Assembly: GCA_004257845.1 (NCBI GenBank)
Contig: GCA_004257845.1_4800.1
Length of the DNA: 64,000 bases
DNA from: a phage
Strand: one strand, 5' to 3'
Shown: piece by piece, positions 6,539 through 63,380 of the stretch
Layout: every line of letters begins with the position of its first letter
Position numbering within the stretch: the stretch's first letter is position 1
Position numbers and translations under genes: made by a program
Notes under the pieces: generated by a model
The model's database searches: none
Seen by the model: only the letters and a program-made list of their open reading frames with translations
Told to the model about the DNA's origin: nothing

Positions 6539-6718
6539 AGAGGAAGTTATGCAAAAGATTATTCAGTCACGTTATGTTAAAGTGCGAAATATTAATTGCA
6601 ACTCTTTGCTTTCTTGGAAATGGGCTGTTTACGACTCGATGTTAATTGGCGTTTTAGTTGCAGGAGTGCTATTTAATATTCACTGAATTCATCGGCAAAG
6701 GATTGCCGCGAGTTTTAT

Positions 6719-6994
6719 ACGTATAATGACGTATCATACGTATCAAGTAAGTTATTGTTTTCAAAAGAATCTTACGGATGATACGGATGATACGCGTTGC
6801 CGCCGTACTATATAGGAATTCAAATAAATTAATTTAAAATTATATATCTAATTTAATTTTATTTTTTTATAAACTCTTATATATGAAAAGTATCCGTATC
6901 ATCCGTATCATCCGTAGCACACCAGTGATAGCGCGGCTTATACACCGATACGGATAAAAATACGCCTCATTTTATCCGTATCATCCGTATCACA
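6719..6994. repeat. iteron/inverted-repeat element A around an AT-rich core
   Basis: CGTATAATGACGTA (6719-6733); direct CTTACGGATGATACGGATGATACGCG (6771-6796); AT-rich 6817-6890; inverted TATCCGTATCATCCGTATCATCCGTA (6891-6916) and TATCCGTATCATCCGTATCAC (6974-6994). A near-identical element occurs at 59124-59410. Confidence 0.7.
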
Positions 6995-7107
6995 CTAATA
7001 AAGGCGCGGCTATATCGGTTGTTATACATATTCAAACCATAATTATTGTTTGCCTAAGTTTTTTTCATTAGATATAATACACAATACTTATTTGAGGGTG
7101 GATGCGA

Positions 7108-42620: not shown

Positions 42621-43616
42621 TTATTTATTAGCAATATAAGCAAATTTTTGATAGTTATTTGCTTTGATGAGTTTTTCAACTTCAGCAAGGTCATGAGCGA
42701 CGTCATCAAGCAAAATGTTTCGCCAAGTAGCGAATCGACCGACACTAAATACGTTCAAATCCATAGTCAACTGGAGCAGTAAGGCGTGGCGCAAGTCTTT
42801 CGGAATGTCGACAATTTTGCCATACTTCTGGTCAACCTTTTCAACTTCTTCCAAAGAGATGTCATTCCATGAAAGACCAAAAGCGGTAAGAACTTCATCC
42901 ACTTCTGCACGCAGCTTCATGTCGCGATAACGGGTAATGCCGCCAGCGGCTTCAACTGCTGCCGCGCTGACGCTTACCAATGGAATTGTTTCAATGATCA
43001 GCGTGTCACCAGTGATTGATGCGCGGTAAGTCCTTACAGAATAGTCAGGGAAGTAAATTGTTTGATAAAGTTCACACTTGCGCTTAATCTTAAAACGATA
43101 AACGCGAATATTTGCCTTATCAAACGAGAAGTCGAGTTTTTGATCAATACCAGCAAGCTTCATCATGACTGGCAGCGGCGATGTGTTGATGATTGGCGTC
43201 TCGCTATAGCCGCAAAGCGTGTCGACCGGAGTATTAAAGAATATACGGTCACCCAGTTTATCGACAAGTTGATCATAAAAGTCATCCGGCGCTATGTAGC
43301 GCGTAGCAGTTTGAAGCTTCATGATTGAGCGGCTGCCAAACTGGTTGGTGACTTTCATAGAGTACATGTTGGCAAGGTTAATCGGGCAGTGGTCGTGATA
43401 GTAGTTGCCGCGAAAATACACAGCCTTATCGACTGTCACGGCCTTAAAGGGGATTCCGGTAATACGGCTTACTTCTTCGCCGCGAAATCGTAGCAGCGCC
43501 TTGTGCTGCGCGACGCGTTCGCCTGCTTCGTACACAATAGAGTTCGGAAAGTGACAAGCCGTGATAAGTCCTGCCAGTCCGCCGCCGATAATCATTACAG
43601 GTTGTTTCATGTTCAT
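42621..43616 (-). CDS. FAD/NAD(P)-binding oxidoreductase
   Basis: N-terminal dinucleotide-binding motif VMIIGGGLAGLITA. Confidence 0.5.
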   Translation of the reverse strand: MNMKQPVMIIGGGLAGLITACHFPNSIVYEAGERVAQHKALLRFRGEEVSRITGIPFKAVTVDKAVYFRGNYYHDHCPINLANMYSMKVTNQFGSRSIMKLQTATRYIAPDDFYDQLVDKLGDRIFFNTPVDTLCGYSETPIINTSPLPVMMKLAGIDQKLDFSFDKANIRVYRFKIKRKCELYQTIYFPDYSVRTYRASITGDTLIIETIPLVSVSAAAVEAAGGITRYRDMKLRAEVDEVLTAFGLSWNDISLEEVEKVDQKYGKIVDIPKDLRHALLLQLTMDLNVFSVGRFATWRNILLDDVAHDLAEVEKLIKANNYQKFAYIANK

Positions 43617-43749
43617 TTGTCCTTTGTGGGTGATATGATAAGTATAATAGCTAAATTATCTTACAGCAACAAGTCATTTTATTTAGTACAGACGAAAAAA
43701 GACCCACAACTGGTGTGGGTCAATTACCGCTACATAACCGTCCTAGAGG

Positions 43750-46422: not shown

Positions 46423-47505
46423 ATGGCTAGTTTAAGAGAAGAAGCAAAAATAATTGAAGAGTTTTTAACAGAACTCCAAAGAGGCATCCCAGAAGATGAG
46501 CGCGTCATGACGGTGTTTGCTCCTGAAGCAACGGTGCAGACCGACGAGCGCGGCAAGAAGATCAACAGCAGCTTCTGGCCTAAGCCTTGGAAGTTGGGCA
46601 AGCCGCTCATGCAGCACCAAAACGGCTATGCATGCATCAGTTCAATGCGTAAGTCTCCCAACCCAAAGACGGGTGAGATGCGATACTGGCGTACAGAGTC
46701 GGCCTTTGGTCACGGCATGGCGATGATGGTCGACGACATCGGTCACGGTAAAGGTTCCAAAGGCGATTTAGATTTGGAATTCTTTTTTGAGCGACTGAAG
46801 CCGACTGTCATCGTCGAGACTTCACCGAACAACCACCAGCTTTGGTACTTCTTTAAAGAACCGATTGACCATCTTATTCAGTTCAAAGCGTTCCTTGGGT
46901 CTTTCGTTAACATGGTACTCAAGAAGGGCGGCGACAACACGATTAAAGACGTAACGCGCGTGGGTCGTGTTCCTGGGTGCATCAACAACAAGCGTGTGAC
47001 TCACGACGGCCCCTATAAATATGTCGATGAGAACGGCGACCCGTTCCGCTGCCGACTTGTCCATGCAGACTACTCATTGCGCTACACCATCGAAGACATT
47101 TGTCAGGCATTTGGCTTTCACGTCGTCATGCCACAAAATCGTGAGATTCAAATTGACGTCGATGAATACAAGTATGATGCTGTTTGGTATAAAATAGCCC
47201 AGCAGATTCTATCGCGCAACAAGATGGGTGAAGGGTCTGATGGCGACGTCATCGAGAATATGTCAGGCAAGTGCCGCATAATCTGTCCTTGGGGTGAAGA
47301 ACACACCAACGGCGACCCGTATGGCGCTTACTTTCGCGGCCCTATCCCTGGTGCAGAACATGAGTTTGTGTTCGGTTGCGCCCACGACTGTCACCGGAAA
47401 GGGGAAGGCAAGAAAGGTTGGACTGCTTTTGTTGAAGCAATCGTCATGCCTTATATTGAGAATCAACTTGACATGATAAATCGTCGTGCAGGTGGCATAA
47501 AATAG
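46423..47505 (+). CDS. putative primase (prim-pol/RepB'-like) with C-terminal Cys/His zinc-binding motif
   Basis: Acidic MVDDIGHGKG and SPNNHQLWYFF motifs; CPWGEEH ... CAHDCH cluster; directly upstream of VirE-like NTPase. Confidence 0.4.
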   Translation: MASLREEAKIIEEFLTELQRGIPEDERVMTVFAPEATVQTDERGKKINSSFWPKPWKLGKPLMQHQNGYACISSMRKSPNPKTGEMRYWRTESAFGHGMAMMVDDIGHGKGSKGDLDLEFFFERLKPTVIVETSPNNHQLWYFFKEPIDHLIQFKAFLGSFVNMVLKKGGDNTIKDVTRVGRVPGCINNKRVTHDGPYKYVDENGDPFRCRLVHADYSLRYTIEDICQAFGFHVVMPQNREIQIDVDEYKYDAVWYKIAQQILSRNKMGEGSDGDVIENMSGKCRIICPWGEEHTNGDPYGAYFRGPIPGAEHEFVFGCAHDCHRKGEGKKGWTAFVEAIVMPYIENQLDMINRRAGGIK

Positions 47506-48814: not shown

Positions 48815-50485
48815 ATGTCAATTAATAATGACAATCTTCCAGAGGATACAGGTGATGAATTTGGTGCAATCTTTGACGAAATTCAAGATGCAGGTGTTTC
48901 GGAAGAAATGCAGGCAGCAGAGCAGCAAGGCACCAGAGCTAAAATCAGCCTTCAACACAAAGCTGTTGAAAAAGATTCAGAGCGCATGGAATGCTACGGT
49001 GAAGAAGACTTGGTTGAAAGAGCACGCTTGCTCGCCTCACTTCAGGTAATCAAGTTCCCTCACTACAAGCCTACCAAAGATGACTTCGTTCTACAGGCAG
49101 ACCGGACGAGTGACATGAACCGTTATGCGGTTTTCGACGCGTTGTTTGATAAGGGAAGTGGCATTGTTCCATTCCCTCACAAAGATACTTTTCGTGGGCG
49201 CTTAGTCGACCATCGCGGCGAAACATTCACTGACCGTACCTTGGAAGTCACAGAGATAGTCGCTGCTGTCGACGCAGCAGGGTTGTCCAACCCAAACTCA
49301 CGTCAGGTCGCTCAATCCTATAAGGAATGGGCCATGCGTTATCAGCGTGACGACCTGATGGACTTCTTCTACAAGAAGCTGCCTGAATGGGACGGTACTG
49401 CGCGCATCGAGAAATACCTTATCGAGCTATTCCGACCGTTCGATACAGAGTTAAACCGACAAATCGGTGTGTATTTTTGGCTATCGCTCTACAACCGCCT
49501 GACCAACCCTGGCTGTCAAGCGCCAATCTCCATCGCGCTAATCGGCGGCCAGAACGCAGGGAAGAGTTATTTTAGCAAGCTGCTTTGCGAAGCTATTATG
49601 AACGACCGCCACGCAACACCGATTCCGTTGAACTTAGCCGCGCAAAACTTCAACCCGTTCTTGCGAGCTATTACGGGTCGCTCAATTATCGCGAACGTTG
49701 GCGAGATGACAGGCTTTAAAAAGGCCGACATCGAAAACATGAAAGCATTCCTGACTAAGACGGAAGATGACCTGGACTTCAAATTTGAAGATACGCAGGT
49801 TAAACCACGCCAGTGGATTGCCATCATGGACGGCAACGAATACGCAGGCATGCAGCGTGACGATACGGGCAACCGTCGTGTTTACCCTATCTTTGTTGGC
49901 CAACTTGCTGACAAGGACGGGCAACCGAACTGGTCTAAAGACTTCCAAGCTGACCTTTCCACTTTGAAAGAAGATGTTTGGCAGCTTATGGCTGAGTGCG
50001 CTGCGTGGATGGAGAAGCACGGCGAAGCAGGCTATAACGCGTTTGTTGGTGAAACATCTCGCATGCTTACTGAGTTCAGTAAAAACGAAATGGAACGTGC
50101 ACGCGGCGTTATCCGTGATGAGATGGTCGACAACGACCTTGTTGAAGTCGTCATCACCGCGCCTTATGACCGACATCACAGCGGACGCTGGCACATCACA
50201 AGTGGTGCTATTGCTATGGGATTCAGAGCGAAGTGCGGCAAGTCGCCTTTCTCTCGTACCCTTGCGCCGCACATGTCGAAGCTTGGCTTTGAGCCTGCGA
50301 CCTATCGCAACCAGCGCGGCTACTTTACGCCGCTGATTAAGAATGAAGCAGGGGAATACATTTCTGATCTGATGACCATCTTAGCGTATCTTATCCGCGA
50401 TGAGTCTGACCCTGAAGATATTGAATTCTTGAAGAAGGTTATTGAGCGTAAACGTTCTTTGGGAAGAGATAAGGATGAATTCTGA
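48815..50485 (+). CDS. VirE-like P-loop NTPase (primase-associated helicase)
   Basis: Walker A LIGGQNAGKSYFSKLL; Walker B-like WIAIMDG; 556 aa. Confidence 0.6.
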   Translation: MSINNDNLPEDTGDEFGAIFDEIQDAGVSEEMQAAEQQGTRAKISLQHKAVEKDSERMECYGEEDLVERARLLASLQVIKFPHYKPTKDDFVLQADRTSDMNRYAVFDALFDKGSGIVPFPHKDTFRGRLVDHRGETFTDRTLEVTEIVAAVDAAGLSNPNSRQVAQSYKEWAMRYQRDDLMDFFYKKLPEWDGTARIEKYLIELFRPFDTELNRQIGVYFWLSLYNRLTNPGCQAPISIALIGGQNAGKSYFSKLLCEAIMNDRHATPIPLNLAAQNFNPFLRAITGRSIIANVGEMTGFKKADIENMKAFLTKTEDDLDFKFEDTQVKPRQWIAIMDGNEYAGMQRDDTGNRRVYPIFVGQLADKDGQPNWSKDFQADLSTLKEDVWQLMAECAAWMEKHGEAGYNAFVGETSRMLTEFSKNEMERARGVIRDEMVDNDLVEVVITAPYDRHHSGRWHITSGAIAMGFRAKCGKSPFSRTLAPHMSKLGFEPATYRNQRGYFTPLIKNEAGEYISDLMTILAYLIRDESDPEDIEFLKKVIERKRSLGRDKDEF

Positions 50486-51132
50486 TGAATAAAGCAATCA
50501 ACATCGCTAAATTCTTTCAACATCTTGGTGAACTGAACAAAGAGAGTGATGTTCACGGCGAAGAAATGAACCGGATGATTTCAACAGTGTTGCGCGGCTT
50601 TGGTTATGATAAGGACTCAATCACTTGCAAGCGCACAAAGCTTGTCGATGAGTCTTATCTTTACTACGTAGAGCTGCGCATTGGTAAAGATGTAATGATC
50701 ATTGACCCTAAACTGGAAGGGGCACACTGTTTTGGCGCTCATCCTCGTGCGAGTGAATTCAAGGGTCGCGGTCGCAACCGAATCCAGAAGCTTGATGACG
50801 CAGGCGACTTGAACATCGCAATGTTCCTTAAAGAGTTCCTTGCGCTACCGAAGGTTGCATCATCCACGGGCCGTGATGACCCTTGCAAGATTGGATTCCG
50901 AACTAAAGATTTGCGCAATGCGCTACGCAAGAAGGGATTTGTGCCTTCTTATGACAATGTCGCCGCGCTGATGGCTTCAATGGAGGAAGCTGAAGCGATG
51001 GACAAGGTACGCGGCTATTTCCTGAATACAGGCTTCACCATGTATGAATGGCACACGAAGGGATTGACTGTCGCCGACTTCATCTATTCATTAGAGCAGA
51101 AGTATGTACGCAATATGCAGGCCACAGGATAA
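50485..51132 (+). CDS. hypothetical protein (215 aa)
   Basis: ATGA-coupled ORF. Confidence 0.45.
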   Translation: MNKAINIAKFFQHLGELNKESDVHGEEMNRMISTVLRGFGYDKDSITCKRTKLVDESYLYYVELRIGKDVMIIDPKLEGAHCFGAHPRASEFKGRGRNRIQKLDDAGDLNIAMFLKEFLALPKVASSTGRDDPCKIGFRTKDLRNALRKKGFVPSYDNVAALMASMEEAEAMDKVRGYFLNTGFTMYEWHTKGLTVADFIYSLEQKYVRNMQATG

Positions 51133-51171
51133 TCATCATCAAAATATTTGCTTTTCTGACGAGGTGATATT

Positions 51172-51396
51172 ATGATTAATTTAGACAGGATTGAGTTAGC
51201 ACTTAGTACCTTAATCAAATATTACCAGTTTGCTTTTAAGGCTAGTTTGTTTGGCTTGTTCAATCCTCATCAAGCAGCAAAGGCGCGAAGCAATGCCAAC
51301 CGCCTGCGCTGCACTGGTATAGTCATCCATGACCGGATATTGACAGAGGGTAGATTCAGCCATGAATACACAGTGGAGAATAACAAATCAACGTAG
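51172..51396 (+). CDS. hypothetical small protein
   Basis: ORF with RBS GAGGTGA. Confidence 0.35.
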   Translation: MINLDRIELALSTLIKYYQFAFKASLFGLFNPHQAAKARSNANRLRCTGIVIHDRILTEGRFSHEYTVENNKST

Positions 51397-51571
51397 GGCT
51401 TTACAAGTCCTCATCCACTACCTGTCACGCCTTTATCCAACGGCGCACGAGCAGAATCCAGCAACTGGTCATCTGTTTAAGCGCCGTAACCTTTCGCTAA
51501 AAACATTCGCTTTAATCCAATATGACCGCTACCTGGACGGGCGCTACTGCGGCCCGAAGGATTCTCTATGA
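51362..51571 (+). CDS. hypothetical small protein (overlaps previous by 35 nt)
   Basis: ORF; uncertain. Confidence 0.25.
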   Translation: MNTQWRITNQRRALQVLIHYLSRLYPTAHEQNPATGHLFKRRNLSLKTFALIQYDRYLDGRYCGPKDSL

Positions 51572-51846
51572 TTACTACATACAAAGTATTCTTTGTCAAA
51601 TGCACATCATCTATTGATGACCAATTTACTGCTGGCAAGAATTATCCCGTGATTTCTGAGTCAAAGCTAGATATAATCTTGAACGATCATGAAATCTATG
51701 AGCCGATGCCAGCGACTGCGTTTGATGTTATCGGTCACGTTCGGATTAAGACGAATGTTGAGACGATGCACGATCCGTTGTTCAAGAAGCAAATCAAGAA
51801 TGCCATGCAAGACTTTTGCGCGGCTATGTTTAAATATTATAAGTGA
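51568..51846 (+). CDS. hypothetical small protein
   Basis: ATGA overlap. Confidence 0.4.
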   Translation: MITTYKVFFVKCTSSIDDQFTAGKNYPVISESKLDIILNDHEIYEPMPATAFDVIGHVRIKTNVETMHDPLFKKQIKNAMQDFCAAMFKYYK

Positions 51847-51853
51847 GTTGAAG

Positions 51854-52075
51854 ATGAGCAAGAAAACCCTTAAGGCTGGCGACCGTATCCGTTGGATGTC
51901 AGGACAGAATATGCGCGCAGGCACCATCCTTGAGCTGGACCAATACCTTACTGATTCACGCGGTCGCAATCATTACCGTGTAAGAATCGATACGGTAAAA
52001 GAAGATGACAAGTCACTGGTTGGTGAAGTCGTCATCGTAACTCCACGTCAAATCAAGGCGGCTTGTGAAGCATGA
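51854..52075 (+). CDS. hypothetical small protein
   Basis: Start at internal ATG 51854. Confidence 0.4.
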   Translation: MSKKTLKAGDRIRWMSGQNMRAGTILELDQYLTDSRGRNHYRVRIDTVKEDDKSLVGEVVIVTPRQIKAACEA

Positions 52076-52227
52076 ATAAATATCAATTTAGCGATAATAA
52101 AATCAGTAAGGCAGACGCAATCAAGCAGCTTCGCCGCGTACTTGAAGCCAGCGGCCATACGAAAGAGCGCGCACGCGTCCTGGCCAAAGAGCATTATAAA
52201 CGTTTCGTGTCACAAATCAGAGGTTAA
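52072..52227 (+). CDS. small ORF (51 aa)
   Basis: ATGA overlap with previous gene; fills gap before 52230; not in ORF track. Confidence 0.3.
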   Translation: MNKYQFSDNKISKADAIKQLRRVLEASGHTKERARVLAKEHYKRFVSQIRG

Positions 52228-52229
52228 TT

Positions 52230-52721
52230 ATGATCATCCATCGCCCTTTAATGTTAAACAAAGAAGAAGCTAAAGAAATTTTACACGCATTGAGACGTGC
52301 AGAAGCAGATGTTAACCTTCGCGTAAAGGTAAGAGACTTCATTATGAAGCAGTTCGAAAGTTATGATGTTGACTATGCCATCGATGAATTACTGAAGCGA
52401 AACGTCAAGGGTGCAACAAGACCTATTCACCATCAATCACGTTGCGTAAGAGTTCCTATTAAAACTTATGTTGATAAAAAGCCGCGCCTTAAGCCAATTG
52501 ACATATTTGACATAAAGAACGGCGACTCAATCATAAGCAAGGACGCGGAAGAGGGTGCAATTCCTGTCAATGGCCGAGTGATTTACGTGTCGCATGACGC
52601 TGATCAGACTTTAATTCAATGGGTAAGGTTTGATAACACCGGCGGCGGCAAATATCGCTACTATGGCGACGAGCGATTCACCACTAAATTCTATAAGGTA
52701 CTCGACCATGGCTCATGTTAA
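52230..52721 (+). CDS. hypothetical protein
   Basis: ORF. Confidence 0.4.
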   Translation: MIIHRPLMLNKEEAKEILHALRRAEADVNLRVKVRDFIMKQFESYDVDYAIDELLKRNVKGATRPIHHQSRCVRVPIKTYVDKKPRLKPIDIFDIKNGDSIISKDAEEGAIPVNGRVIYVSHDADQTLIQWVRFDNTGGGKYRYYGDERFTTKFYKVLDHGSC

Positions 52722-53055
52722 AGACGAAGTGTTGTTTGGCGCAGAGATTAAGAAACGTGTCAGAGAAATGGCAGGAGAAGAAAGAATGAAGTCGCTGCGA
52801 AAAGGTTTTGATCACATCAATGGCGTATCCGGCACGAAGGAGATGGGCGTGTTGGTAAAAGACATTCGCATTGGCGATGTCATGGTCATCGACCGACAAG
52901 CGCGCGTCGTTATCCAGGTACAGCCGAACGATGATGAAGGTTGTGTCCTATTGAAGTTGAAGAAGCTTTCATCAAGCCCAGCGAAGGCCGTCATCAAGAA
53001 GGTATGGCCCGAAGGATTACGCAAACTCATTCGTCGACCAGTGGAGAATGTATAA
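52708..53055 (+). CDS. hypothetical protein
   Basis: Start at ATG 52708. Confidence 0.4.
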   Translation: MAHVKDEVLFGAEIKKRVREMAGEERMKSLRKGFDHINGVSGTKEMGVLVKDIRIGDVMVIDRQARVVIQVQPNDDEGCVLLKLKKLSSSPAKAVIKKVWPEGLRKLIRRPVENV

Positions 53056-53291
53056 TGGAAGATTATATCAATGCTATGTATATGGCATTCTATGTCGTGC
53101 AACTTCCGAATGGCGCGGTATTCTATGGCGAGTATACCTTTGACGTTCAATATGACGTTTCAGAGCGTACAGTGTTAACAAGGGAGTTGATTGCTGACCT
53201 TAAGGACGACATCAAACGCGTCGCGCGGCAGCAGTTCAATTTGGATGACACCGTCATCGTTCGAATTACTGGAATAACAGAGGTGCAGTGA
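53055..53291 (+). CDS. hypothetical small protein
   Basis: TAATG overlap. Confidence 0.4.
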   Translation: MEDYINAMYMAFYVVQLPNGAVFYGEYTFDVQYDVSERTVLTRELIADLKDDIKRVARQQFNLDDTVIVRITGITEVQ

Positions 53292-53620
53292 TGACCCGTG
53301 ATCAGATACTTGCCGCGTATGAGCGTAGGAAGGTGAACGAAATCTGGAAAAGACACAACGCCTTTGCCGAGTCCTATTACTTCTTAAAGAGGTGCATAAA
53401 AGAGAATGTGAGGATGGGCGATACCGTTTTGACATTTAACATTTTGTCTTATGGTAATAAGCTTAATGCAATATATGCTTGTCGACTAGCCAACATGAAG
53501 TTCGATAGAGGAGGTGACGGAGAGTTGACCATCTATCGATTCTCTCACCGGACGGGTGATACAAAGATAACAAGGACACGTGACCAGATAGAGATTGACC
53601 TACTCCACTATGTAAAATGA
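53288..53620 (+). CDS. hypothetical protein
   Basis: ATGA overlap. Confidence 0.4.
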   Translation: MMTRDQILAAYERRKVNEIWKRHNAFAESYYFLKRCIKENVRMGDTVLTFNILSYGNKLNAIYACRLANMKFDRGGDGELTIYRFSHRTGDTKITRTRDQIEIDLLHYVK

Positions 53621-53638
53621 ATATCAAAAAGGTGATTT

Positions 53639-53833
53639 ATGAGTGTTAAACTAGACATACAGAAAACTCTTGATAAGGCCGCTGCAATAAAGAACTTCAT
53701 GGATTGTTACGCCAGTTGCACGCTTTATGGAAGCGTTCCAAACGGCGACGTAAGACCGGAAAGTATGCTTGAGTGGCTTGTTGAGCATCGCTACATAATC
53801 GACATAGTTGATGAATACATAAAGCAGAAATGA
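53639..53833 (+). CDS. hypothetical small protein
   Basis: RBS AAAAGGTGA. Confidence 0.4.
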   Translation: MSVKLDIQKTLDKAAAIKNFMDCYASCTLYGSVPNGDVRPESMLEWLVEHRYIIDIVDEYIKQK

Positions 53834-53837
53834 ATAT

Positions 53838-53867
53838 CAAAAAGGTGAGCTAAATGCTTGCCTTTTC
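53838..53867 (+). terminator. repeated terminator hairpin module, copy 1
   Basis: TCAAAAAGGTGAGCTAAATGCTTGCCTTTT: 10-bp stem with two G-U pairs, then T-run; identical 30-mer at 55090-55119; TATACT box follows. Confidence 0.45.
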
Positions 53868-53918
53868 TTTTATCAATATTTATACTCTTTTCATCAATAC
53901 GAACAAGTGAGGTGAATT

Positions 53919-54236
53919 ATGATTTACTTAGGCATCGACAAGGAACAGGACGAGCGGTTAGGAAGCGTGTTAAACGTAGACTTGAACACAGCTGTACACA
54001 CCAAGCCTTGGCCAGAGGGCCACCCCGACGTAGTTGTACCCGTTGCACCTTGGACGCGTTACGTGGCCATTGACGATAACGGCCTTGTTCATTGTTACTC
54101 AGAAAAGCCGACATACTTCGAAAAGTATCACCAATGGCTCATGACTGGATGGGCAAAGGTGCGCTGTTGCGGCGAAGTCGGTCTGGATGGCTGGAGCTTC
54201 GAGGCTAGTGAATCGTGTGTCGAGGTGCAATTATGA
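53919..54236 (+). CDS. hypothetical protein
   Basis: RBS GAGGTGA. Confidence 0.4.
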   Translation: MIYLGIDKEQDERLGSVLNVDLNTAVHTKPWPEGHPDVVVPVAPWTRYVAIDDNGLVHCYSEKPTYFEKYHQWLMTGWAKVRCCGEVGLDGWSFEASESCVEVQL

Positions 54237-54451
54237 ATGCCGCGCTGGGTAAGTTGTCTTTTAATAAGCGCAATGAGTTGCGTATGGTGTCGGCTTTTCA
54301 GCGCACCCTTAATGCCATGTCAAGCATTGCAATGACAATTCTTCGTGCCGATTGTCCTGAAGAAGAACGTGAGTGCTTGTACGCAAGACACAAACAACTA
54401 AACAAAGCTGCATTCAAGTTGCAGCAATATGCTATGGAGTATGCGAAATGA
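54233..54451 (+). CDS. hypothetical small protein
   Basis: Start ATG 54233. Confidence 0.4.
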   Translation: MNAALGKLSFNKRNELRMVSAFQRTLNAMSSIAMTILRADCPEEERECLYARHKQLNKAAFKLQQYAMEYAK

Positions 54452-54831
54452 GAATGAAGCGTTGCCCTTACTGCCACGATGTGATGCACCTTCCACACGA
54501 AGAGTTTGTGCAGCACATGACTGACTGTGATAAGAATCCTAATAGCGAAAGCCAACTTGAAGAAAGAATGTTCTTGGTGTCATTCAAAGCTTCTGCTTAT
54601 GAAGTGCAACGTTCTTACGGCGCACCAAGTACGATTTACTGTCCAACAACATTGAGAAGCGACATCGACTCAATTCAGCTTGCGGCCTGGATTAACGTTA
54701 AGGAAGGAATCACGCCGCACTTTATTGCGCGCATCCAATCTCAGATTCTACAAATCAAGCGCGAATACAACCGTGACATCACTGAAGTGAAGGTGTTGTC
54801 TATCACGCCGATGAATAAGGAGTTGCCGTGA
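54448..54831 (+). CDS. hypothetical protein with CxxC ... H ... C zinc-binding-like N-terminus
   Basis: CPYCHDVMH ... HMTDC. Confidence 0.4.
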   Translation: MRMKRCPYCHDVMHLPHEEFVQHMTDCDKNPNSESQLEERMFLVSFKASAYEVQRSYGAPSTIYCPTTLRSDIDSIQLAAWINVKEGITPHFIARIQSQILQIKREYNRDITEVKVLSITPMNKELP

Positions 54832-55088
54832 ACAAGGGTCCGATGACCAAGTTGGCCGTTGGCGCGCGGAAGCTTCGACAAGCCGTTAATGGGTCGCGGC
54901 CCGTGGCGTTAACACTAGACGATGCAAAGGCACTGGTAGAGCTACTCGACGAGCACAACCGACGCAAGAATCTGGAGAACACATTACGCTGGCGCGTTAC
55001 TCCGAAAGGGCGGGAGAGCGAAAAGAAAGCTTACTTGCGACGCAAACTAAGGTCGGTCGGCCTTCACGAAGAGGCGAAGAAGATTTGA
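54828..55088 (+). CDS. hypothetical small basic protein
   Basis: ORF. Confidence 0.4.
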   Translation: MNKGPMTKLAVGARKLRQAVNGSRPVALTLDDAKALVELLDEHNRRKNLENTLRWRVTPKGRESEKKAYLRRKLRSVGLHEEAKKI

Positions 55089-55089
55089 T

Positions 55090-55119
55090 TCAAAAAGGTG
55101 AGCTAAATGCTTGCCTTTT
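55090..55119 (+). terminator. repeated terminator hairpin module, copy 2
   Basis: Identical 30-mer to 53838-53867 followed by T-run and TATACT box. Confidence 0.45.
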
Positions 55120-55166
55120 TATTTACCTGTATTATACTTAGTTCATCAAGCAAAGGAGAAATGATT

Positions 55167-55469
55167 ATGAGTTACGACGAAAGGTTTGGCAGAAGCGGAT
55201 TATTTCATGACGCTGTACACAAAGACAGCAAAGATGTTGTCTGCGCATTCAAGGTTGATTCTTACGGTACGCTGAAACCTTTTAAGGTCGGCGAAACATA
55301 CAAGCTGTTTCACGGATGGTTAACGCGTCGCAACAACTTGCCTGACATGGAAGTCTGGTGGATAGAATACAATGGTCAGGCTCATCGGTGCAAGGTTGTA
55401 GAGGTGCGCGGCGTGACCTACTACCAATCTGTTATCAGCGGCTTTGTTTTTAAAGAGGGTGAGTTATGA
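55167..55469 (+). CDS. hypothetical protein
   Basis: Start at ATG 55167 after RBS AAGGAG; track ORF start 55107 lies inside the terminator hairpin. Confidence 0.4.
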   Translation: MSYDERFGRSGLFHDAVHKDSKDVVCAFKVDSYGTLKPFKVGETYKLFHGWLTRRNNLPDMEVWWIEYNGQAHRCKVVEVRGVTYYQSVISGFVFKEGEL

Positions 55470-55771
55470 GCACCAAAGCGATGAAGATTAAGTTGTTGAA
55501 GGTGATGCAGGCCGCTGTAGAGTGCGGCGCTATTCAGGAGTTCAAAGAGACTCAAGAAGGCGGTGAGCCAGTATTCTTCTTTAAGAATAAGAAAGGTGCG
55601 GCAGTTGCGTTGATGCTCTTGAAGAACAGCGACACGACCTTTATTCTTTGCGCAGGCGGTTATGACCTTGTTGCCGATGACGCTTACATCACCTGCGCGA
55701 CGGGCCTTAATCCTATGTTAACGTTCGAGCGTCGCGGTATTCGTGTTGCGACATTTGGAGGCTGTTTATGA
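55466..55771 (+). CDS. hypothetical protein
   Basis: ATGA overlap. Confidence 0.4.
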   Translation: MSTKAMKIKLLKVMQAAVECGAIQEFKETQEGGEPVFFFKNKKGAAVALMLLKNSDTTFILCAGGYDLVADDAYITCATGLNPMLTFERRGIRVATFGGCL

Positions 55772-56064
55772 AACTAAGTTTAGCACAAGTCCAAACATTA
55801 TACCGTATGGAAGACGGGACGCGATATATGTTGCGTGGCGATTGCAAGAAGGCTCATGAGAAGCGCCCATCGCTGTTTCATGACGTCAATGCACCATCAA
55901 TCCCTGTTTTGTTTCGCCTTGGGCTTGTTGATTGGGCGGTTCAAGGAGAAAAAGACCCAAGGCTATATTCATTTGTGGTGATGACAAAGAAGGGTCGCGA
56001 GGCATTACAAGGAATTAAAGAGAATATGAGAGGAGGAAAATACTATTATGACATCCAACCTTAA
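55768..56064 (+). CDS. hypothetical protein
   Basis: ATGA overlap. Confidence 0.4.
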   Translation: MKLSLAQVQTLYRMEDGTRYMLRGDCKKAHEKRPSLFHDVNAPSIPVLFRLGLVDWAVQGEKDPRLYSFVVMTKKGREALQGIKENMRGGKYYYDIQP

Positions 56065-56284
56065 AGCCCGTTTGTTATTCATCAAGCCACATATGCCTTA
56101 TAAGATTAGTAAACGCACCTGGCTCAACATCTACAACCGCAGCGGCGACCGTTGCTTGTACAAGGCGAAGCGACGCAAGAAGGTATATTTAAAAGCGGTG
56201 ATGTCGCAGCCAGTCGATGCATTCATCATCGGAGAAAATGAATTGTCAGTAGGACATCAAATCGAACTCGGAGCAAAGAAATGA
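56048..56284 (+). CDS. hypothetical small protein
   Basis: ORF. Confidence 0.35.
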   Translation: MTSNLKARLLFIKPHMPYKISKRTWLNIYNRSGDRCLYKAKRRKKVYLKAVMSQPVDAFIIGENELSVGHQIELGAKK

Positions 56285-56784
56285 AAATCGAACAACTCGA
56301 AGCAGTATTGGAAATGGCTGTTAAAGCAGGCGCAATCAAAAGCTGGCGTCGCGAGAAGTCGGATGACGCCGCGCACTTTTGCCGCAACTTCTATATTGTC
56401 GGCAACCTTAACGACCACTACACCATCGAGTGGTATACTAATATGATGACGCTTAAGTCGCGCACCATGGAGCTTTGGTGCAATGACATTTGCTTATCCA
56501 ACACTCATCCATCCTACGACGTTGCATTGGCATTCTATCACGGAAGTCATCAACCAGTAGCCCACATTGGTGAGAAGCACGAATACCTGAAGGCGGGACC
56601 AGAAGATCCAATGGAAGGTTGGATTGAATGGTCTGGCGGCAAGAATCCGGTGCCTGGTAAAAAGGTCATGTTGATGTGGAGGAATGGCGCAAAGTCATCA
56701 TACGCTTTCAATTCAAAAGGATACATATGGACTCACGACGGAAGCACCCATGACATCATCGCTTATCGCGTCGTGGAGGAATAA
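56281..56784 (+). CDS. hypothetical protein with C-terminal W-GG-NPVPGK domain
   Basis: C-terminal ~55 aa alignable with C-terminus of 57930-58349 product. Confidence 0.45.
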   Translation: MKIEQLEAVLEMAVKAGAIKSWRREKSDDAAHFCRNFYIVGNLNDHYTIEWYTNMMTLKSRTMELWCNDICLSNTHPSYDVALAFYHGSHQPVAHIGEKHEYLKAGPEDPMEGWIEWSGGKNPVPGKKVMLMWRNGAKSSYAFNSKGYIWTHDGSTHDIIAYRVVEE

Positions 56785-57125
56785 TGGAAGAGCAAGAAGG
56801 CCGTGAGCTAACGTTCGACGAGCAGATGCAAGAGCTTCAGCGCACATCGCCGCTGCGCGGTAAGGTTGTTGACATCGAGGCGAGAGAATCCAATCTCACC
56901 CAGTGGCGGCTCAAGTGCACCAGCGCAAGCAAGGATATGTTAAGCTTCAAAGTCGGTCAGACCTATTTGCTTTATGAGGCAAAAGGACTTATTATTGATG
57001 GAAGGCAAATTGTCTTCACGGTCGTCAGCGGAATGCGTTGGTTTGTGAAGCGTGATGTCGAGGGCCGTGACATGTTTGTCGCAGGCTTTCCAGCAACAAG
57101 ATTCCAATTGGAGAAGGTTGAATGA
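56784..57125 (+). CDS. hypothetical protein
   Basis: ORF. Confidence 0.4.
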   Translation: MEEQEGRELTFDEQMQELQRTSPLRGKVVDIEARESNLTQWRLKCTSASKDMLSFKVGQTYLLYEAKGLIIDGRQIVFTVVSGMRWFVKRDVEGRDMFVAGFPATRFQLEKVE

Positions 57126-58814: not shown

Positions 58815-58830
58815 GAGGGCCGATTGGCCC
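58815..58830 (+). terminator. intrinsic terminator
   Basis: Hairpin AGGGCCGATTGGCCCT followed by TTTTTGTTTG. Confidence 0.6.
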
Positions 58831-58840
58831 TTTTTGTTTG

Positions 58841-59060
58841 CCTGTGGAATGTGAGGCTTTATTATCGGATAAAGCGATTGATTTGTGTAAATCTATTAGA
58901 GGGTCGTGGGTAGTAAGGATTGTGACGTGAATTTTGTGTCTTGAATATGTGTGCGAATTTGGAAGAATATTGTACTGTGGTGCTGTGGGATTGGAGAGGG
59001 AATCACTAGGAATTGGAGCGTGTACCGTGGTGTGTGGTCCTGTAGGCTGCGCCGTATATG
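58841..59060 (+). other. G/T-skewed non-coding segment rich in GGA motifs (candidate structured or sponge-type RNA)
   Basis: No ORF; strong G+T excess on plus strand; about ten GGA triplets, five within GGGATTGGAGAGGGAATCACTAGGAATTGGAGCG. Confidence 0.3.
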
Positions 59061-59123
59061 GGATTGTCGCTTGAAACTAAAAAGGAGATATAGTTAGCTG
59101 GCTAACCTTACGCATAGAATTTA

Positions 59124-59410
59124 AGCGTATAATGACGTAAGATTTGGACCTATCCGTAGTTCACTCCACACACTTCTATGGTGCGCCGCGACTGGGTTCA
59201 GTGGTACATCTTACGGATGATACGGATGATACGCGTCGCCGCTATACTTTATACAACTTTGAAAAAACAATTAACTCCATTTTGAATTAATTTAAATTAA
59301 TTTTTTTCTACATCCTCATACTTATACTAAACTTATATTTATACGTATTATCCGTAAGATATAAGTAAAAACAAAGACTTGCGGCAATACGGATGATACG
59401 TCATGATACG
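59124..59410. repeat. iteron/inverted-repeat element B (second copy of element at 6719-6994)
   Basis: GCGTATAATGACGTA (59124-59138); CTTACGGATGATACGGATGATACGCGTCGCCGC (59210-59242); AT-rich core; inverted TTATCCGTAAG and ACGGATGATACGTCATGATACG. Confidence 0.7.
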
Positions 59411-59522
59411 CTTCGACCAGCCAGCAGCGGCTAAGTCATTGATTTGCATAACAAGCGGCGAAAGGGATGGATTTCTTTTATACGTATCAAACAGTACACC
59501 ACGCACCACGGTCCGCAATCCT

Positions 59523-60822
59523 ATTTGCACTATGATTTGTGTACGTTTATAGCCATAATGAACATCAATCTGCACTTGAATATAATGTCCATCCATTGTA
59601 TAATTCACACTATTAATTTGCACTATGGGATTTTGCACTATGAGTCAAGATTATGTAGCGATGCCTGAAGACTTTGAAGACCCGCGATTCGCAGAGCACA
59701 ATCAGGCTTTATTCGATGAGTTCATTGACCTTGTTATTCAGGGCCATGACATGCGCGCAGCTTTTGCACTAGTATTTGGAATGGAAGTTGCAACGGATAA
59801 CTACACTGGCCAGCGAATCCTTTGCGCACAACGCAATCCGTACTACAAAATGCGCTTCAAAAAGCGTATGGAAGAGATGCCACTCAAGGATTTGTGGAGC
59901 GTAAAAGGTGCAATTCACAATTTGGTCAAGCTTGTGCGTGATCCAGAAGTCGCGGCGTCAGCCAAGCTTAATGCTATTCGTGAACTGAATATCATCTACG
60001 GCATCACGATGATTGATGAAAACGGCAATAGTAAAATGGGCCGTTCCATGGACGATTTCTACAAGGATTTTGGAGAGGCAGCCAAAGAAGGTGAGCAATT
60101 CTCCCGCCACTAGCCAATTTGCACTATAAAACGGCCCTAGAACACATTTTCTCCACTTCTAGGGCCATCGGTAATACGACGGGGAAGGTTACAACCGTAA
60201 ACGCGTTAGAAAGTGTATTATTATAAGTCATCTTTTAGTCACTTTACGTAACAATTTACGACCTTCAACCGTCCAATCGAACGACTCCACCAGCAGATTT
60301 GCACTATAACCTAAGACGATGCGCCCTTTCTCGTTATCGACCCGCCAACAAGTCTCGAATAGCATTCGATTTGCACTATTAACTATTGCCGCAACTCGCG
60401 TAGGATAAGCGCAATTTGCACTATGGTCGTAAAGGGATAAGGTGCGACCACTTCCGATGGACAACGTAGCGATGAGAATGAGTGTATTCATAAGCCACCA
60501 ATTTGCACTATGAAAAGCGACCCCGAAGGGCCGCCATTCGATTAGATAATCTGGAAGGTGTAGGACTTGTTGCCGAACTCGAAGTTTAAGCGTCCAGCTT
60601 CCTTAAGCTTCATGCGGAAGCGAATGTGCTTGCTATCCGGTAAGCCCAGCGCGGCGAACGCTACGCGGACCGATTTGAACTCGCCTACACCCTCGACCAT
60701 GACACCGTTACGGGTAAGACGCTTTTGCGCCACTTCCTTATTATCCCAACTTTTTGCAATACCTTCGCTATTCGAACGGCGATGGGATGGAGTTCCATTT
60801 TGCACTACGCAATTTGCACTAT
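59523..60822 (+). promoter_or_regulatory. array of at least nine copies of the motif (A/T)ATTTGCACTAT, all in one orientation
   Basis: Copies read at about 59524, 59616, 59631, 60113, 60297, 60368, 60413, 60500, 60796 and 60808; variant AATTTGCAGTACACT at about 63205 and 63297. Confidence 0.55.
59640..60113 (+). CDS. hypothetical protein (157 aa; small-terminase or regulator candidate)
   Basis: ORF preceded by iteron element B and by two motif copies overlapping its start codons; helical, acidic N-terminus. Confidence 0.4.
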   Translation: MSQDYVAMPEDFEDPRFAEHNQALFDEFIDLVIQGHDMRAAFALVFGMEVATDNYTGQRILCAQRNPYYKMRFKKRMEEMPLKDLWSVKGAIHNLVKLVRDPEVAASAKLNAIRELNIIYGITMIDENGNSKMGRSMDDFYKDFGEAAKEGEQFSRH

Positions 60823-61168
60823 CGTTTAAACCGCTCTTAACGAAGGCTTCATACTCTTCGTCGGTCATCGCGTCGAGTTCTTCCTGGGTCGGCTCGGACT
60901 TTTTAACGACCGCACGCGCCTTATGCGTTTTTACATCGTTGGGCACTTCCTCGCGCGACTTCGCGTCTGGGATGGGCGACTCGTTGGACGGCTCATCGAG
61001 CGCGTTTAAGGACTCGATTAACGCTATTACGCGAGTCTCGGCGGTCCGGCGGTCCGCAAATTTTTTGATCGGCTTCGAACCGGAATTTGCATTATAAAAT
61101 GCAACGAGGTCGGCGGTCTTAGTTGCGATAACGTCGCCGCTAGTCGAGAAACGATTTAAGCTAACCAT
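60542..61168 (-). CDS. hypothetical protein (208 aa) in atypical-codon-usage island
   Basis: ORF with CpG-rich, C-ending codon usage distinct from the rest of the window. Confidence 0.4.
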   Translation of the reverse strand: MVSLNRFSTSGDVIATKTADLVAFYNANSGSKPIKKFADRRTAETRVIALIESLNALDEPSNESPIPDAKSREEVPNDVKTHKARAVVKKSEPTQEELDAMTDEEYEAFVKSGLNDSANCVVQNGTPSHRRSNSEGIAKSWDNKEVAQKRLTRNGVMVEGVGEFKSVRVAFAALGLPDSKHIRFRMKLKEAGRLNFEFGNKSYTFQII

Positions 61169-61248
61169 AATGAACTCCTATTTGTTAGGGCGCTAGGCGC
61201 GAAAGAATTTTATTAAAGCGCCGCGCACGACGCTCTAAAAATCCTCTC

Positions 61249-61533
61249 TTACGCTTCGACGAGGGAGAAGGTCTCAAATTCTTCTTCGCCCATAACGAGT
61301 AAGATGTTACCGATTTCGACCGCTTCGAAGAAGTATCCGTTAACGTTTACTTCGAAGGCTTCGCGGTCCGATTCCGGTAACGCCGCGTAAAGTTTAAAAG
61401 CCTCGGCGACCGTAACCCCACCCGCCTCGATAGTTTGGTCTACGTTCGCGGCGTAGACTTCGGATAAAATTTGTTTTACGCCGTAGTTCTCGACGATAGC
61501 GTTACGGATAGAAGAAACGTTAAGAATAGCCAT
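61249..61533 (-). CDS. small protein, paralog family member A
   Basis: Paralog of 62167-62457 product; preceded on minus strand by conserved promoter and 5'UTR hairpin with RBS AGGAG. Confidence 0.5.
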   Translation of the reverse strand: MAILNVSSIRNAIVENYGVKQILSEVYAANVDQTIEAGGVTVAEAFKLYAALPESDREAFEVNVNGYFFEAVEIGNILLVMGEEEFETFSLVEA

Positions 61534-61612
61534 TTTAAACTCCTAGTTGGGAGAGGCGTTAACGACCTATTCGTTAACTCATCCCGTCCCGATATGAGTA
61601 CATTATAATATA
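61534..61612 (-). promoter_or_regulatory. conserved promoter plus structured 5'UTR, copy A
   Basis: Minus-strand reading: GTGCTTTACT-16-TATAAT, TATCGGGACGGG, hairpin GTTAACGA-ATAGG-TCGTTAAC, CCAACTAGGAG RBS. Confidence 0.5.
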
Positions 61613-61644
61613 GTGTAGAAAAAAGTAAAGCACTTTTTCGATAA

Positions 61645-61673
61645 AGATGAGATAAATTATTTTATCTTTTTTC
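61645..61673 (+). terminator. AT-rich hairpin with T-run between divergent promoters
   Basis: AGATAAATTATTTTATCTTTTTT; weak stem. Confidence 0.25.
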
Positions 61674-61757
61674 TTTACTTCTTCGTACACTCGCGTATAC
61701 TTGTTTATATCGAGACGGGCGATGACCCTTTCTTTTACTACCATCGGGAGTTTTATT
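61674..61757 (+). promoter_or_regulatory. promoter (TTTACT-16-TATACT) and 5'UTR for 61758 gene
   Basis: Shares GTGCTTTACTTCTTCGTACACT and TTTATATCGAGACGGG with the other two copies. Confidence 0.45.
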
Positions 61758-62060
61758 ATGGCTACTTTAATTTCTTCTCTTCTTACTTACGACGAAGACC
61801 GCTTAACCGTCGCTTCTCTTCTTAAAGCCGTTAACGCAGAATTAGACGGGACCGCTATTAAGGTCCGCGCGTTCGCCTTCGTCGGCCTTTCCTTCGACGA
61901 TATGAAGTACGTCGAACGTAGCGCCATCCGCTTCGCGAAGACCGACGACGAAGCCGTTACCCTTATCGAAACCGTAACGCCGCGCGGCGAAGCGCTAATT
62001 ATCGTCGAGTATCTCGATATAGAAGGCTATAAAGCTTATAAACATTTTATCGCAAAATAA
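61758..62060 (+). CDS. hypothetical small protein (100 aa)
   Basis: RBS GGGAG; Leu codons almost exclusively CTT/TTA, unlike the rest of the window. Confidence 0.45.
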   Translation: MATLISSLLTYDEDRLTVASLLKAVNAELDGTAIKVRAFAFVGLSFDDMKYVERSAIRFAKTDDEAVTLIETVTPRGEALIIVEYLDIEGYKAYKHFIAK

Positions 62061-62070
62061 CGAAAAGTGC

Positions 62071-62166
62071 TTTACTTCTTCGTACACTAAGACTATAATG
62101 TTTTATATCGAGAGGGGATGAGGTAGCGAATAGGTCGCTACCCGCCCGACCAACTAGGAGATTATT
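62071..62166 (+). promoter_or_regulatory. conserved promoter plus structured 5'UTR, copy B
   Basis: TTTACT (62071-62076) -17- TATAAT (62094-62099); TATATCGAGAGGGG; hairpin GGTAGCGA-ATAGG-TCGCTACC (62122-62142); CCAACTAGGAG RBS. Confidence 0.55.
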
Positions 62167-62457
62167 ATGATTACTTTAGCCGCTATCCGTTCCGCTCGCG
62201 TCGAGACTTCCGAAAACTCTAACGTATTTGGCGAAACCTTAGAGAGCGTTTATCTCTCTAACGTAGACGCAACTATCGAATCTATTTATGAGCCGATCAA
62301 CTTCCTCGACCTTTACAAGTATCGCGATGAGGACATCGTATCTTGCCGCGTAACCATCAACGGCTTCGTCTATACGATTACCGAAATCGGCGGCGAATAT
62401 CTCGCGGTCCCGCAACTCGGCGGCGAAGTAACTTTCTTTAAAATCGTAAGCCTGTAA
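62167..62457 (+). CDS. small protein, paralog family member B
   Basis: Alignable with 61249-61533 product (SxYxxNVDxTIE ... VxxNGxxxxxxEIG). Confidence 0.5.
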   Translation: MITLAAIRSARVETSENSNVFGETLESVYLSNVDATIESIYEPINFLDLYKYRDEDIVSCRVTINGFVYTITEIGGEYLAVPQLGGEVTFFKIVSL

Positions 62458-62468
62458 GGAGAAGGAAG

Positions 62469-62678
62469 ATGACTAATATGAATAATTCTCTTAACGCGCG
62501 CGCCCATCGTACCGCCGTAATCGATATGTTCCGCGAGCTTAAGGAATTATGCGATAATATGAACGCGATGTTATCCATCGGCGGCTGGGGATACGAAGAA
62601 GAGGTTAAATACGCGGTTATGCGTCGCCGTCGCGATAACGTCCTTGGGCAAATTAAACGCGCCGGATTATTCCTTTAA
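62469..62678 (+). CDS. hypothetical small protein (69 aa)
   Basis: RBS GGAGAAGGA; followed by terminator. Confidence 0.4.
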   Translation: MTNMNNSLNARAHRTAVIDMFRELKELCDNMNAMLSIGGWGYEEEVKYAVMRRRRDNVLGQIKRAGLFL

Positions 62679-62704
62679 TTATAATTACCAACAGTTACTA
62701 ATAG

Positions 62705-62722
62705 GCCGCGCTTAGTCGCGGC
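62705..62722 (+). terminator. intrinsic terminator
   Basis: GCCGCGCTTAGTCGCGGC followed by TTTTCTTC. Confidence 0.55.
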
Positions 62723-62739
62723 TTTTCTTCGCCCCTATC

Positions 62740-63380
62740 TCGATGCGCTTCTCCGCGAAAACTCCTTTATCCTTCCCTTCGTCGTCGCATAATCTTCGTC
62801 GAGATGCTCCTTAGTTCGTATAACGGGTATTACGTTAAATGGAGAACATCGCGTAAGTCCTTGTTTTATATAGACACCTATATCGGACCGTTAGGGCGGG
62901 TCGCGTAAGTCGTTGTTTTATAAAGGCGCAAAACTTTCCCTTCGTTCCGAACTAAAACGAGGAATATGCCGACCCTTCGTCCGAAAATAGTACGCATGCG
63001 AAATTACATGCATCTCGAATAATTCCCACCGATATTATCCTACAAGCAATCATTCTCTTTCGAATCATTATGCTTCATATTATTATGCGTCGAATCATTC
63101 GCTTTCGAATTGTAACGCTGGAAACTGTAACGGCGATTGATTATTGCGTTCGTGTGGTTTTTAGGGCATGGGTCTTTTGGTGCGTTTTGGTACTTGATGA
63201 AATTTGCAGTACACTAATCAAAATACGACACATTTGGTCCACTAACTTTTCAAAGAAAAAGTCCTGGACAGTACCGTACTATTTTGTACCCACAGGAAAT
63301 TTGCAGTACACTCCTGCGCGCCAGGCAAAATAAAGGGCCGCACTAAGCGACCCACGATTCACGGTTAAGGCAACATCCAC
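62740..63380. repeat. repeat-rich non-coding region
   Basis: Direct repeats CGCGTAAGTC(C/G)TTGTTTTATA (about 62853 and 62903), TCGAATCATT x3, TGTAACG x2, AAATTTGCAGTACACT x2; no convincing ORF. Confidence 0.5.

Follow-up and report, generated by a model that had tools for sequence, protein, structure and literature searches.

In the satellite phage P4, the alpha primase-helicase binds two loci, ori and crr, the second of which lies 4.5 kb from the first and acts in cis at a distance. The Bacillus phage SPP1 has two origins, oriL and oriR, both bound by the initiator G38P, while the replication promoters phiOL and phiOR of phage T7 are located next to the terminal repeat of the genome. In the pac sites of phages P1 and SPP1, repeats flank a central terminase cut. 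The SPP1 pac is likewise described in a review of the field (PMC9611059). The Rep proteins of SaPIs are self-loading initiator helicases, and the structure 7PDS is that of SaPI1 Rep1 bound to DNA; the C-terminal winged helix of these proteins reads penta- or hexanucleotide iterons, of which 6-12 are located immediately downstream of rep (PMC9371898). The SaPI ori has an AT-rich centre with at least two iterons per side, arranged in opposite directions, and two Rep hexamers are thought to load on either side of it (PMC9371898).

For the PB1-like phages, "AT-rich boxes and conserved intergenic motifs" of unclear function have been reported together with predicted promoters (PMC3008698), and on packaging the accessible literature adds only a tentative pac position in phage JG024 (PMC10913387). 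In this literature, we found no description of a paired module, of a Rep-type origin design, or of a genome end within the core of such an element. In this work, we analyse a phage DNA stretch of 64,000 nucleotides (hereafter the window), which carries two copies, A and B, of an iteron module around an AT-rich core.

Each of the described systems shares a part of this arrangement. By analogy with P4, one SF3 initiator with a C-terminal DNA-binding domain would act on the same iterons at two loci; in contrast to crr, which is without an AT-rich core flanked by inverted iterons, both copies here have the full architecture, and P4 packages its DNA from a cos site unrelated to ori. Similarly to SPP1, two distant copies of initiator-type repeats with AT-rich DNA are present, one among replication genes and the other among late genes. 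However, the initiator of SPP1, an organiser of the DnaA/lambda O type, depends on a loader and a helicase that are separate from it, and the SPP1 pac is a distinct locus. The likeness to T7 lies in origin-type elements that abut the terminal repeat and would extend to a link between replication and concatemer processing, but the T7 elements are RNA-polymerase promoters with AT-rich DNA rather than iteron/helicase origins, and the T7 genome end is located outside phiOL and phiOR. The comparisons with the SaPI ori and with the pac sites are made below, together with the evidence on which they depend.

Two copies of one iteron module

Both loci are matched at 91-99% identity by 29 Wifcevirus records (E. 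coli/Shigella myophages of 67-72 kb), including WFC, WFH, ECML-117, FEC19, vB_Eco4M-7, Mansfield, and BASEL Bas98-101, and on this sequence identity we assign the window to Wifcevirus, as a 68-kb E. coli myophage. This genus is a distant relative of Pbunavirus, the PB1-like Pseudomonas phages (PMC11990801).

A sequence-only reading of the window had proposed a complex iteron and inverted-repeat element at 6719-6994 with a second copy at 59124-59410, and had suggested that the two loci be compared by dot-plot. The element proved to be real. When the loci were compared, they aligned collinearly over ~300 bp in the same orientation, and in an unbiased k-mer scan region B was the sole genome-wide partner of region A (z=12.2). 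Copy A occupies 6716-7010 (it extends from ~6704 to 7012), slightly beyond the span first proposed, and copy B occupies 59125-59411; the two copies of a genome are separated by 52 kb and 16 kb. The motifs quoted in that reading were all located at or near their proposed positions: CGTATAATGACGTA, common to both copies, at 6720 and 59126; the tandem iteron CTTACGGATGATACGGATGATACGCGT(T/C)GCCGC at 6771 and 59210; and, within the AT-rich core, AATTAATTTAAA at 6827 and 59285. The inverted ATCATCCGTA held for copy A (6898, 6907, and 6980) but not for copy B, where only an imperfect ATTATCCGTAA occurs at 59348; a further TACGGATGATACG at 59388 in copy B is in direct, not inverted, orientation.

The 13-mer TACGGATGATACG, with at most 2 mismatches allowed, has 11 matches in the window against 1.17 expected (0/100 shuffles), and 10 of these 11 lie inside loci A and B. 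The real repeat unit is a five-base core, ATACG/CGTAT, with a spacing of 9-10 bp. Its density per 300 bp is 13 in A and 9 in B, with 0.61 expected, and these are its two densest places in the window; when degenerate units are included, copy B has 9-11 cores and copy A has 13. From left to right, the two copies share outer iterons, two tandem inner iterons (TACGGATGA twice), GCCGC, a TAYWWTATA box, an AT-rich core of 80-95 bp (79-85% A+T), inverted iterons, GCGGC, and more iterons (Table 1). The A+T content of the core is ~85% in copy A and ~79% in copy B, compared with 54% for the window. The inner arms of copy A, 6773-6794 and 6895-6916, are 22 nt long and 100% complementary, and the right arm of copy B is less regular than that of copy A. 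Opposed iterons are found in copy A at 6781 and 6790 (plus strand) versus 6895 and 6904 (minus strand), and in copy B at 59220 and 59229 (plus strand) versus 59344 (minus strand) with a degenerate unit at 59352.

Among six Wifcevirus genomes, 2.5% of the sites vary in the non-coding core of copy A versus 7-9% in the coding sequence upstream of it. Single-strand folding gave strong hairpins (z=-7.2 for A and z=-4.2 for B), which restate the inverted iterons and do not separate the candidate functions. No Rfam family was found in a scan of the whole window, and a scan of public viral contigs with the iteron 16-mer returned only known Wifcevirus genomes and single chance matches.

Table 1. Positions of the module parts, the genome end, and the associated genes and signals in the window.
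Feature	Coordinates	Strand	Details
Terminator-like hairpin with T-run	6693..6708	+	Ends the operon of portal, MuF, and head-fibre genes; adjoins copy A on the left
Copy A, outer-left iteron cluster	6716..6744		TATACGTATAATGACGTATCATACGTATC; CGTAT cores at 6720, 6730, 6739; spacing 10 and 9 bp
Copy A, inner-left iterons	6772..6803	+	TTACGGATGATACGGATGATACG (9-bp period), then GCCGC at 6799-6803
Copy A, AT-rich core	6805..6893		Opens with TACTATATAG box; candidate DNA-unwinding element
Copy A, inner-right iterons	6894..6937	-	CCGTATCATCCGTATCATCCGTAG; perfect inverted inner-left arm; GCGGC at 6933-6937
Copy A, outer-right iterons	6947..7010		GATACGGATAAAAATACG (+), ATCCGTATCATCCGTATC (-); second GCGGC at 7006-7010
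Sigma70-like promoter	7050..7078	+	TTGCCT-17-TATAAT; for the head protease/scaffold/capsid operon (starts at 7102)
RepB-type primase gene	46423..47505	+	PF16793; helicase partner
VapE/Rep-type SF3 helicase gene	48815..50485	+	Proposed initiator; SaPI1 Rep1 (7PDS) homologue; winged-helix-like C-terminal domain (predicted)
Terminator with T-run	58817..58840	+	GGGCCGATTGGCCC; ends the early-gene block that precedes it; WFH record carries the annotation
G-over-C-skewed non-coding left flank	58840..59100	+	Copy B only; GC skew +0.4 to +0.58
Copy B, outer-left iterons	59125..59159		GCGTATAATGACGTA; ATCCGTAG
Copy B, inner-left iterons	59211..59242	+	TTACGGATGATACGGATGATACG, then GCCGC at 59238-59242
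Copy B, AT-rich core	59243..59339		~79% A+T
B-specific word	59272..59286	+	TAACTCC|ATTTTGAA; virion DNA left end at 59278|59279
Direct terminal repeat	59279..63258	+	Left end exact; right end varies by record
Copy B, right-arm iterons	59340..59411		TATACGTATTATCCGTAA; GCGGC at 59381; ATACGGATGATACGTCATGATACGC
Small terminase gene (terS)	59640..60113	+	E217 TerS homologue (Pbunavirus); PDB 7UXE decamer, E=7e-34

The pair in related phages

Paired large non-coding regions occur at matching syntenic positions in PB1 and JG024 (Pbunavirus), Serratia phage Hera (Myosmarvirus), and Burkholderia phage WTB, one of them upstream of the head protease gene and the other between the VapE-type helicase gene and terS. 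The sequence-only reading had tied the standing of the element to its presence in related phages, and in all of these lineages the pair is found: in PB1/JG024, Hera, and WTB, the k-mer scan returns the B region as the sole genome-wide partner of the A region (z=7.9-11.3). Four genera share the A position, although the identity between their proteins is only 30-45%. The architecture common to all lineages comprises GCCGC, a TATA-like box, an AT-rich core, GCGGC, and inverted iterons, while the iteron itself differs by lineage and is the same in both copies of a genome (ATACGG in the window, ATACGT in L057, ATCCGCAAG in L058, GGTAATTTGG in PB1, ACTTTTCG in Hera, YTAACTAAA in WTB, and CGTTATTTAA in FoX7). 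Two metagenomic relatives form a graded series, in which the iteron ATACGT occurs at a helicase identity of 75% and TTATCCGCAAGA, which is of the L058 type, at 56%. Because the iterons of the two copies change together, these comparisons imply a single lineage-specific binding protein for both copies; the pair itself is ancient, and its two members evolve in concert.

The Xanthomonas phage FoX7 carries a B-type copy only, which follows its helicase gene directly, at a distance of 2.8 kb from terS; copy A was not found in this genome. Since FoX7 is without it, copy A is not essential for the phage group. The B-type copy also directly follows the helicase gene in PB1, Hera, and WTB, and in L058 one ORF lies between them.

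In the window, the helicase gene is separated from copy B by ~8.6 kb of small plus-strand ORFs (50485-59100), as is also seen in L057, and the same interval is nearly empty in PB1, Hera, WTB, and FoX7. This block looks like an accessory-gene expansion. In related genomes, homology drops abruptly just left of the B core (at ~59208 of the window): three unrelated left-flank haplotypes are found at Wifcevirus B, and many Pbunavirus records align only from JG024 ~59354 onward. Given this abrupt loss of homology, the element marks a boundary, of recombination or of mosaicism, at which the accessory early-gene block gives way to the terminal repeat.

Genome end and packaging start in copy B

The records of phages WFC, WFH, and Mansfield all start at a nucleotide that maps to window position 59279, in the middle of the AT-rich core of copy B; this left end of the virion DNA had not been mentioned in the sequence-only reading. 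The WFC record holds both copies of a direct terminal repeat of 3,784 bp, with the left boundary ...AATTAACTCC|ATTTT..., and the WFH record contains a repeat of 3,701 bp that starts at the nucleotide homologous to the WFC start. For Mansfield, a terminal repeat of 3,673 bp was predicted with PhageTerm (PMC6753283). The repeat runs rightward from the cut, which corresponds to one packaging direction, and terS lies 360 bp to the right of this end. On the right, the boundary is less consistent, with the repeat ending at 63177|63178 in WFH and Mansfield versus 63258|63259 in WFC, and no ATACG iterons were found there.

The right end of the WFC type is flanked by GAAATTTGCAGTACACT in two direct copies, at 63199 and at 63296, and just upstream there are short repeats of TCGAATCATT and of TGTAACG. 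With the segment 63050-63320, the genome has a third large non-coding region. Inside the terminal repeat, a 27-nt inverted repeat (61611-61637 and 62063-62089, 89% complementary) brackets 425 bp and adjoins an AT-rich stretch at 61500-61800 (32-34% G+C).

The genome of the Pbunavirus JG024 is reported to be circularly permuted; among 161 long reads, 36 have their start at 59,376 +/-5, restriction analysis revealed a pac fragment that agrees with this position, and there is a drop in coverage just before the site (PMC10913387). We located position 59,376 between the left and right iteron arms of the JG024 B-type element, and six independently deposited Pbunavirus records start at equivalents of JG024 59,374-59,378. 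The B-type core is the packaging start in a headful packager and in a terminal-repeat packager alike. Besides any role in replication, copy B is almost certainly a packaging start and genome terminus. Because it holds the physical left end of the virion DNA, copies A and B are not functionally equivalent.

No excess of record breaks was found at A-type copies: 294 of 297 Pbunavirus records span the element intact, and one record, that of E215, opens inside the A-type core against 0.45 expected by chance among the 297. This record (NC_042080.1, bases 1 and 66789) opens at ...GTAACGTTC|CAATAGAATTC... and was rejected as evidence of cutting at A, since it is an unprocessed SPAdes contig and a single such record in 297 agrees with chance; the opening is probably an assembler artefact.

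Several features are specific to the B-type copy. The cut-site word (Table 1) is unique in the window, is not present in copy A, and is kept in all three otherwise unrelated Wifcevirus left-flank haplotypes and in the metagenomic relative L057. The left flank of the B-type copy is G/T-rich and shows a strong G-over-C skew of +0.38 to +0.71 across Wifcevirus, PB1, and Hera, and on the right side PB1, Hera, and FoX7 have a flank rich in C and A. Flanks of such extreme strand composition are located at 58840-59100 of the window, at 42800-43000 and 43420-43640 of PB1 (L041), and at 54020-54150 of FoX7; the right flank of FoX7 has tandem CAACCCCATCAT and CAACAACCCCGG units, and A-type copies are without such flanks. 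An array of ATTTGCACTAT (at most 1 mismatch) comprises 10 copies, all on the plus strand, at 59523-61095 of the window, that is, 245-1,817 bp right of the left end, with 1.8 copies expected (0/100 shuffles). It spans terS and minus-strand genes, and words like ATTTGCACTAT precede terS in L057; the array may be a terminase-recognition or DNA-injection signal. A scan with the IHF consensus WATCAANNNNTTR gave 7 matches versus 4.25 expected, which is not significant, and one of them lies 150 bp right of the cut. It is most likely that the B-specific signals, namely the cut-site word, the G-rich left flank, and, on the side that is packaged, the directional ATTTGCACTAT array, direct the terminase. 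Copy A carries none of them, which would explain why it stays uncut.

A candidate replication origin and competing readings

The helicase encoded in the window is VapE-like in Pfam (PF05272) and matches 7PDS with E=4e-11 as a single sequence and E=9e-24 with a 40-sequence profile. Its AlphaFold model (pLDDT 86) includes an H-b-H-H-b-b segment at residues 436-504. In a fold search with this model, the best six PDB matches were all 7PDS chains (E~1e-16, ~480 columns), with an alignment that covers essentially the whole target (~450 residues), and the next matches, NrS-1 and poxvirus D5/E5, were about nine orders of magnitude weaker. Judged from the model and the whole-protein fold alignment, the C-terminal domain appears to be winged-helix-like. 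It is the fastest-diverging part of the helicase (identity of the C-terminal domain versus the core, 58% vs 85%, 37% vs 63%, and 27-35% vs 55%), and TerS diverges evenly along its length. This pattern is consistent with, although not decisive for, a C-terminal domain that sets iteron specificity.

The modules resemble the SaPI ori in their iteron cores of five or six bases (~6-13 copies; here 13 in A and 9-11 in B, phased at 9-10 bp), in the AT-rich centre with iterons on both sides, which is present in both copies, and in the opposed iterons, of which at least two per side are found fully in copy A and partly in copy B. Further likenesses are the lineage-specific iterons, the structurally homologous helicase of the self-loading SF3 Rep type, the separate primase gene beside the helicase gene, and, in most of the relatives, the position of the element immediately downstream of the helicase gene. 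Unlike the SaPI ori, the modules belong to a virulent 68-kb Gram-negative myophage and not to a satellite island, there are two of them per genome, and one contains the virion DNA end. In the window, neither copy is immediately downstream of the helicase gene, as the nearer one, copy B, lies 8.6 kb downstream and copy A is far from it. Gene orientation diverges from neither copy, which counts against an origin.

Because the design matches that of the SaPI ori, a Rep helicase homologue is encoded, and in most relatives the gene for it is closely followed by the B-type copy, the shared module is best read as a replication origin of the SaPI type that depends on Rep and occurs twice in the genome, and we consider this reading reasonably probable. 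Of the two functions offered by the sequence-only reading, an iteron origin or a late promoter, the origin is thus the better supported, through the helicase homologue, the SaPI-like design, and the gene order in relatives; it remains conditional in that the argument proceeds from homology and architecture. We infer that the Rep-like SF3 helicase would use its C-terminal winged-helix domain, which evolves fast, to recognise the phased iterons with their ATACG core, assemble in opposite orientations to the left and right of the AT-rich core, melt the core, and load itself, after which the RepB-type primase would prime synthesis. Copy B would be the ancestral origin; its counterpart is located directly downstream of the primase-helicase genes in Pbunavirus, Myosmarvirus, WTB, and FoX7. 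Copy A would be a duplicate held in step with B by selection for a common binding protein. Copy A is most likely a second origin or a helper site in cis, similar to the crr of P4.

A DNA end inside an origin core is unusual and could instead mean that the iterons are terminase sites, in the manner of the P1 and SPP1 pac. According to this main rival, which we regard as unlikely, a decameric TerS would bind on both sides, bend or wrap the DNA, and present the core to the large terminase. Copy B would then be the active pac and copy A, with as little likelihood, an uncut terminase-binding site that acts as a head-operon regulator or as a synapsis partner, of which the 'twin-ring pac synapsis' model of Black for T4 is reportedly an example. 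The virion DNA ends in the B core in two genera, the copy is 360 bp upstream of terS, and, as in the P1 and SPP1 pac, short repeats surround a central cut region of ~100 bp next to terS and packaging is unidirectional; the iterons, ~10-13 in number and phased at 9-10 bp, are comparable to the ten TerS subunits, and ring-ring oligomers have been proposed for E217 TerS. However, this homologous TerS showed no appreciable DNA binding in vitro (PMC9611059), and the Wifcevirus genomes all start at the site and end with a 3.9-kb direct repeat, unlike permuted headful genomes. There is no sign that the second copy of the module, whose iterons are arranged most perfectly, is cut, and in FoX7 the element adjoins the helicase gene and is 2.8 kb from terS, so that a pac module explains B but neither copy A nor the FoX7 layout. 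Moreover, the flanks of B, the ATTTGCACTAT array, and the cut-site word can account for terminase specificity without the iterons, whose design fits a Rep-helicase origin and is explained by the SaPI Rep parallel without TerS. The origin and the packaging signal could also be one and the same, which we hold to be distinctly unlikely: helicase melting or firing at B would make the DNA structure that the terminase cuts, packaging would be licensed by the replication initiator, and, in Wifcevirus, origin firing at the repeat boundary could re-replicate the 3.9-kb repeat in concatemers. If this were true, each cut genome would get a full copy of the repeat, which would solve the long-standing question of how long terminal repeats are regenerated.

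The late-promoter alternative of the sequence-only reading fared less well. In its present form, a phage regulator bound to the iterons would switch on, or set the timing of, late transcription at the head operon (A) and at terS (B), and the TATA(T/A)AG box would serve as a -10 element that depends on an activator and directs transcription into the AT-rich core; we consider both the regulator and the box in this role improbable. Late genes do follow both copies, the TATA(T/A)AG box comes after the left GCCGC in most copies in four genera, earlier annotators predicted sigma70 promoters inside Pbunavirus cores, and 11 non-sigma70 promoters are located somewhere in the genome of phage 14-1 (PMC10914365). 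In contrast, a sigma70 promoter scan found no enrichment inside the modules (4 vs 3.8 expected; 7 vs 4.0), and good sigma70-like promoters are separate and downstream, at 7050-7078 for the head operon and at 59559-59604 ahead of terS. With terminators upstream and these promoters downstream, both modules are transcriptionally insulated and need not be the promoters of the next genes. In addition, the late operons for the large terminase, the portal, and the tail have no such module, the head genes of FoX7 are expressed although copy A is not there, and the DNA end in copy B is left unexplained. It is very improbable that copy A is merely a neutral leftover of duplication or recombination at the genome-end region, with no function of its own. 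The absence of copy A from FoX7 and the nature of the element as a recombination hotspot, with mosaic boundaries in two genera, would fit such a history, but A has been retained at one position in four genera despite the low protein identity, every lineage shows parallel changes in the iterons of A and B, and the core of A is better conserved than the coding sequence next to it.

The PB1-like phages, including Pbunavirus, Wifcevirus, and their relatives, are among the phages most used in phage therapy and synthetic rebooting, and so far their replication origins have been undefined and their packaging signal only tentatively mapped; precise candidates are now available for both. For engineering, this means that both modules and the 59278|59279 junction have to be preserved in any synthetic genome. 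Since the virion DNA end lies in an origin-like core in two genera, in a headful and in an exact-repeat packager, the initiation of replication is suggested to be mechanistically linked to terminase cutting. If the origin reading is true, it would explain two conserved non-coding regions that were earlier listed as motifs or predicted promoters, and a SaPI-type system of a self-loading helicase and an iteron origin would operate in large virulent myophages.
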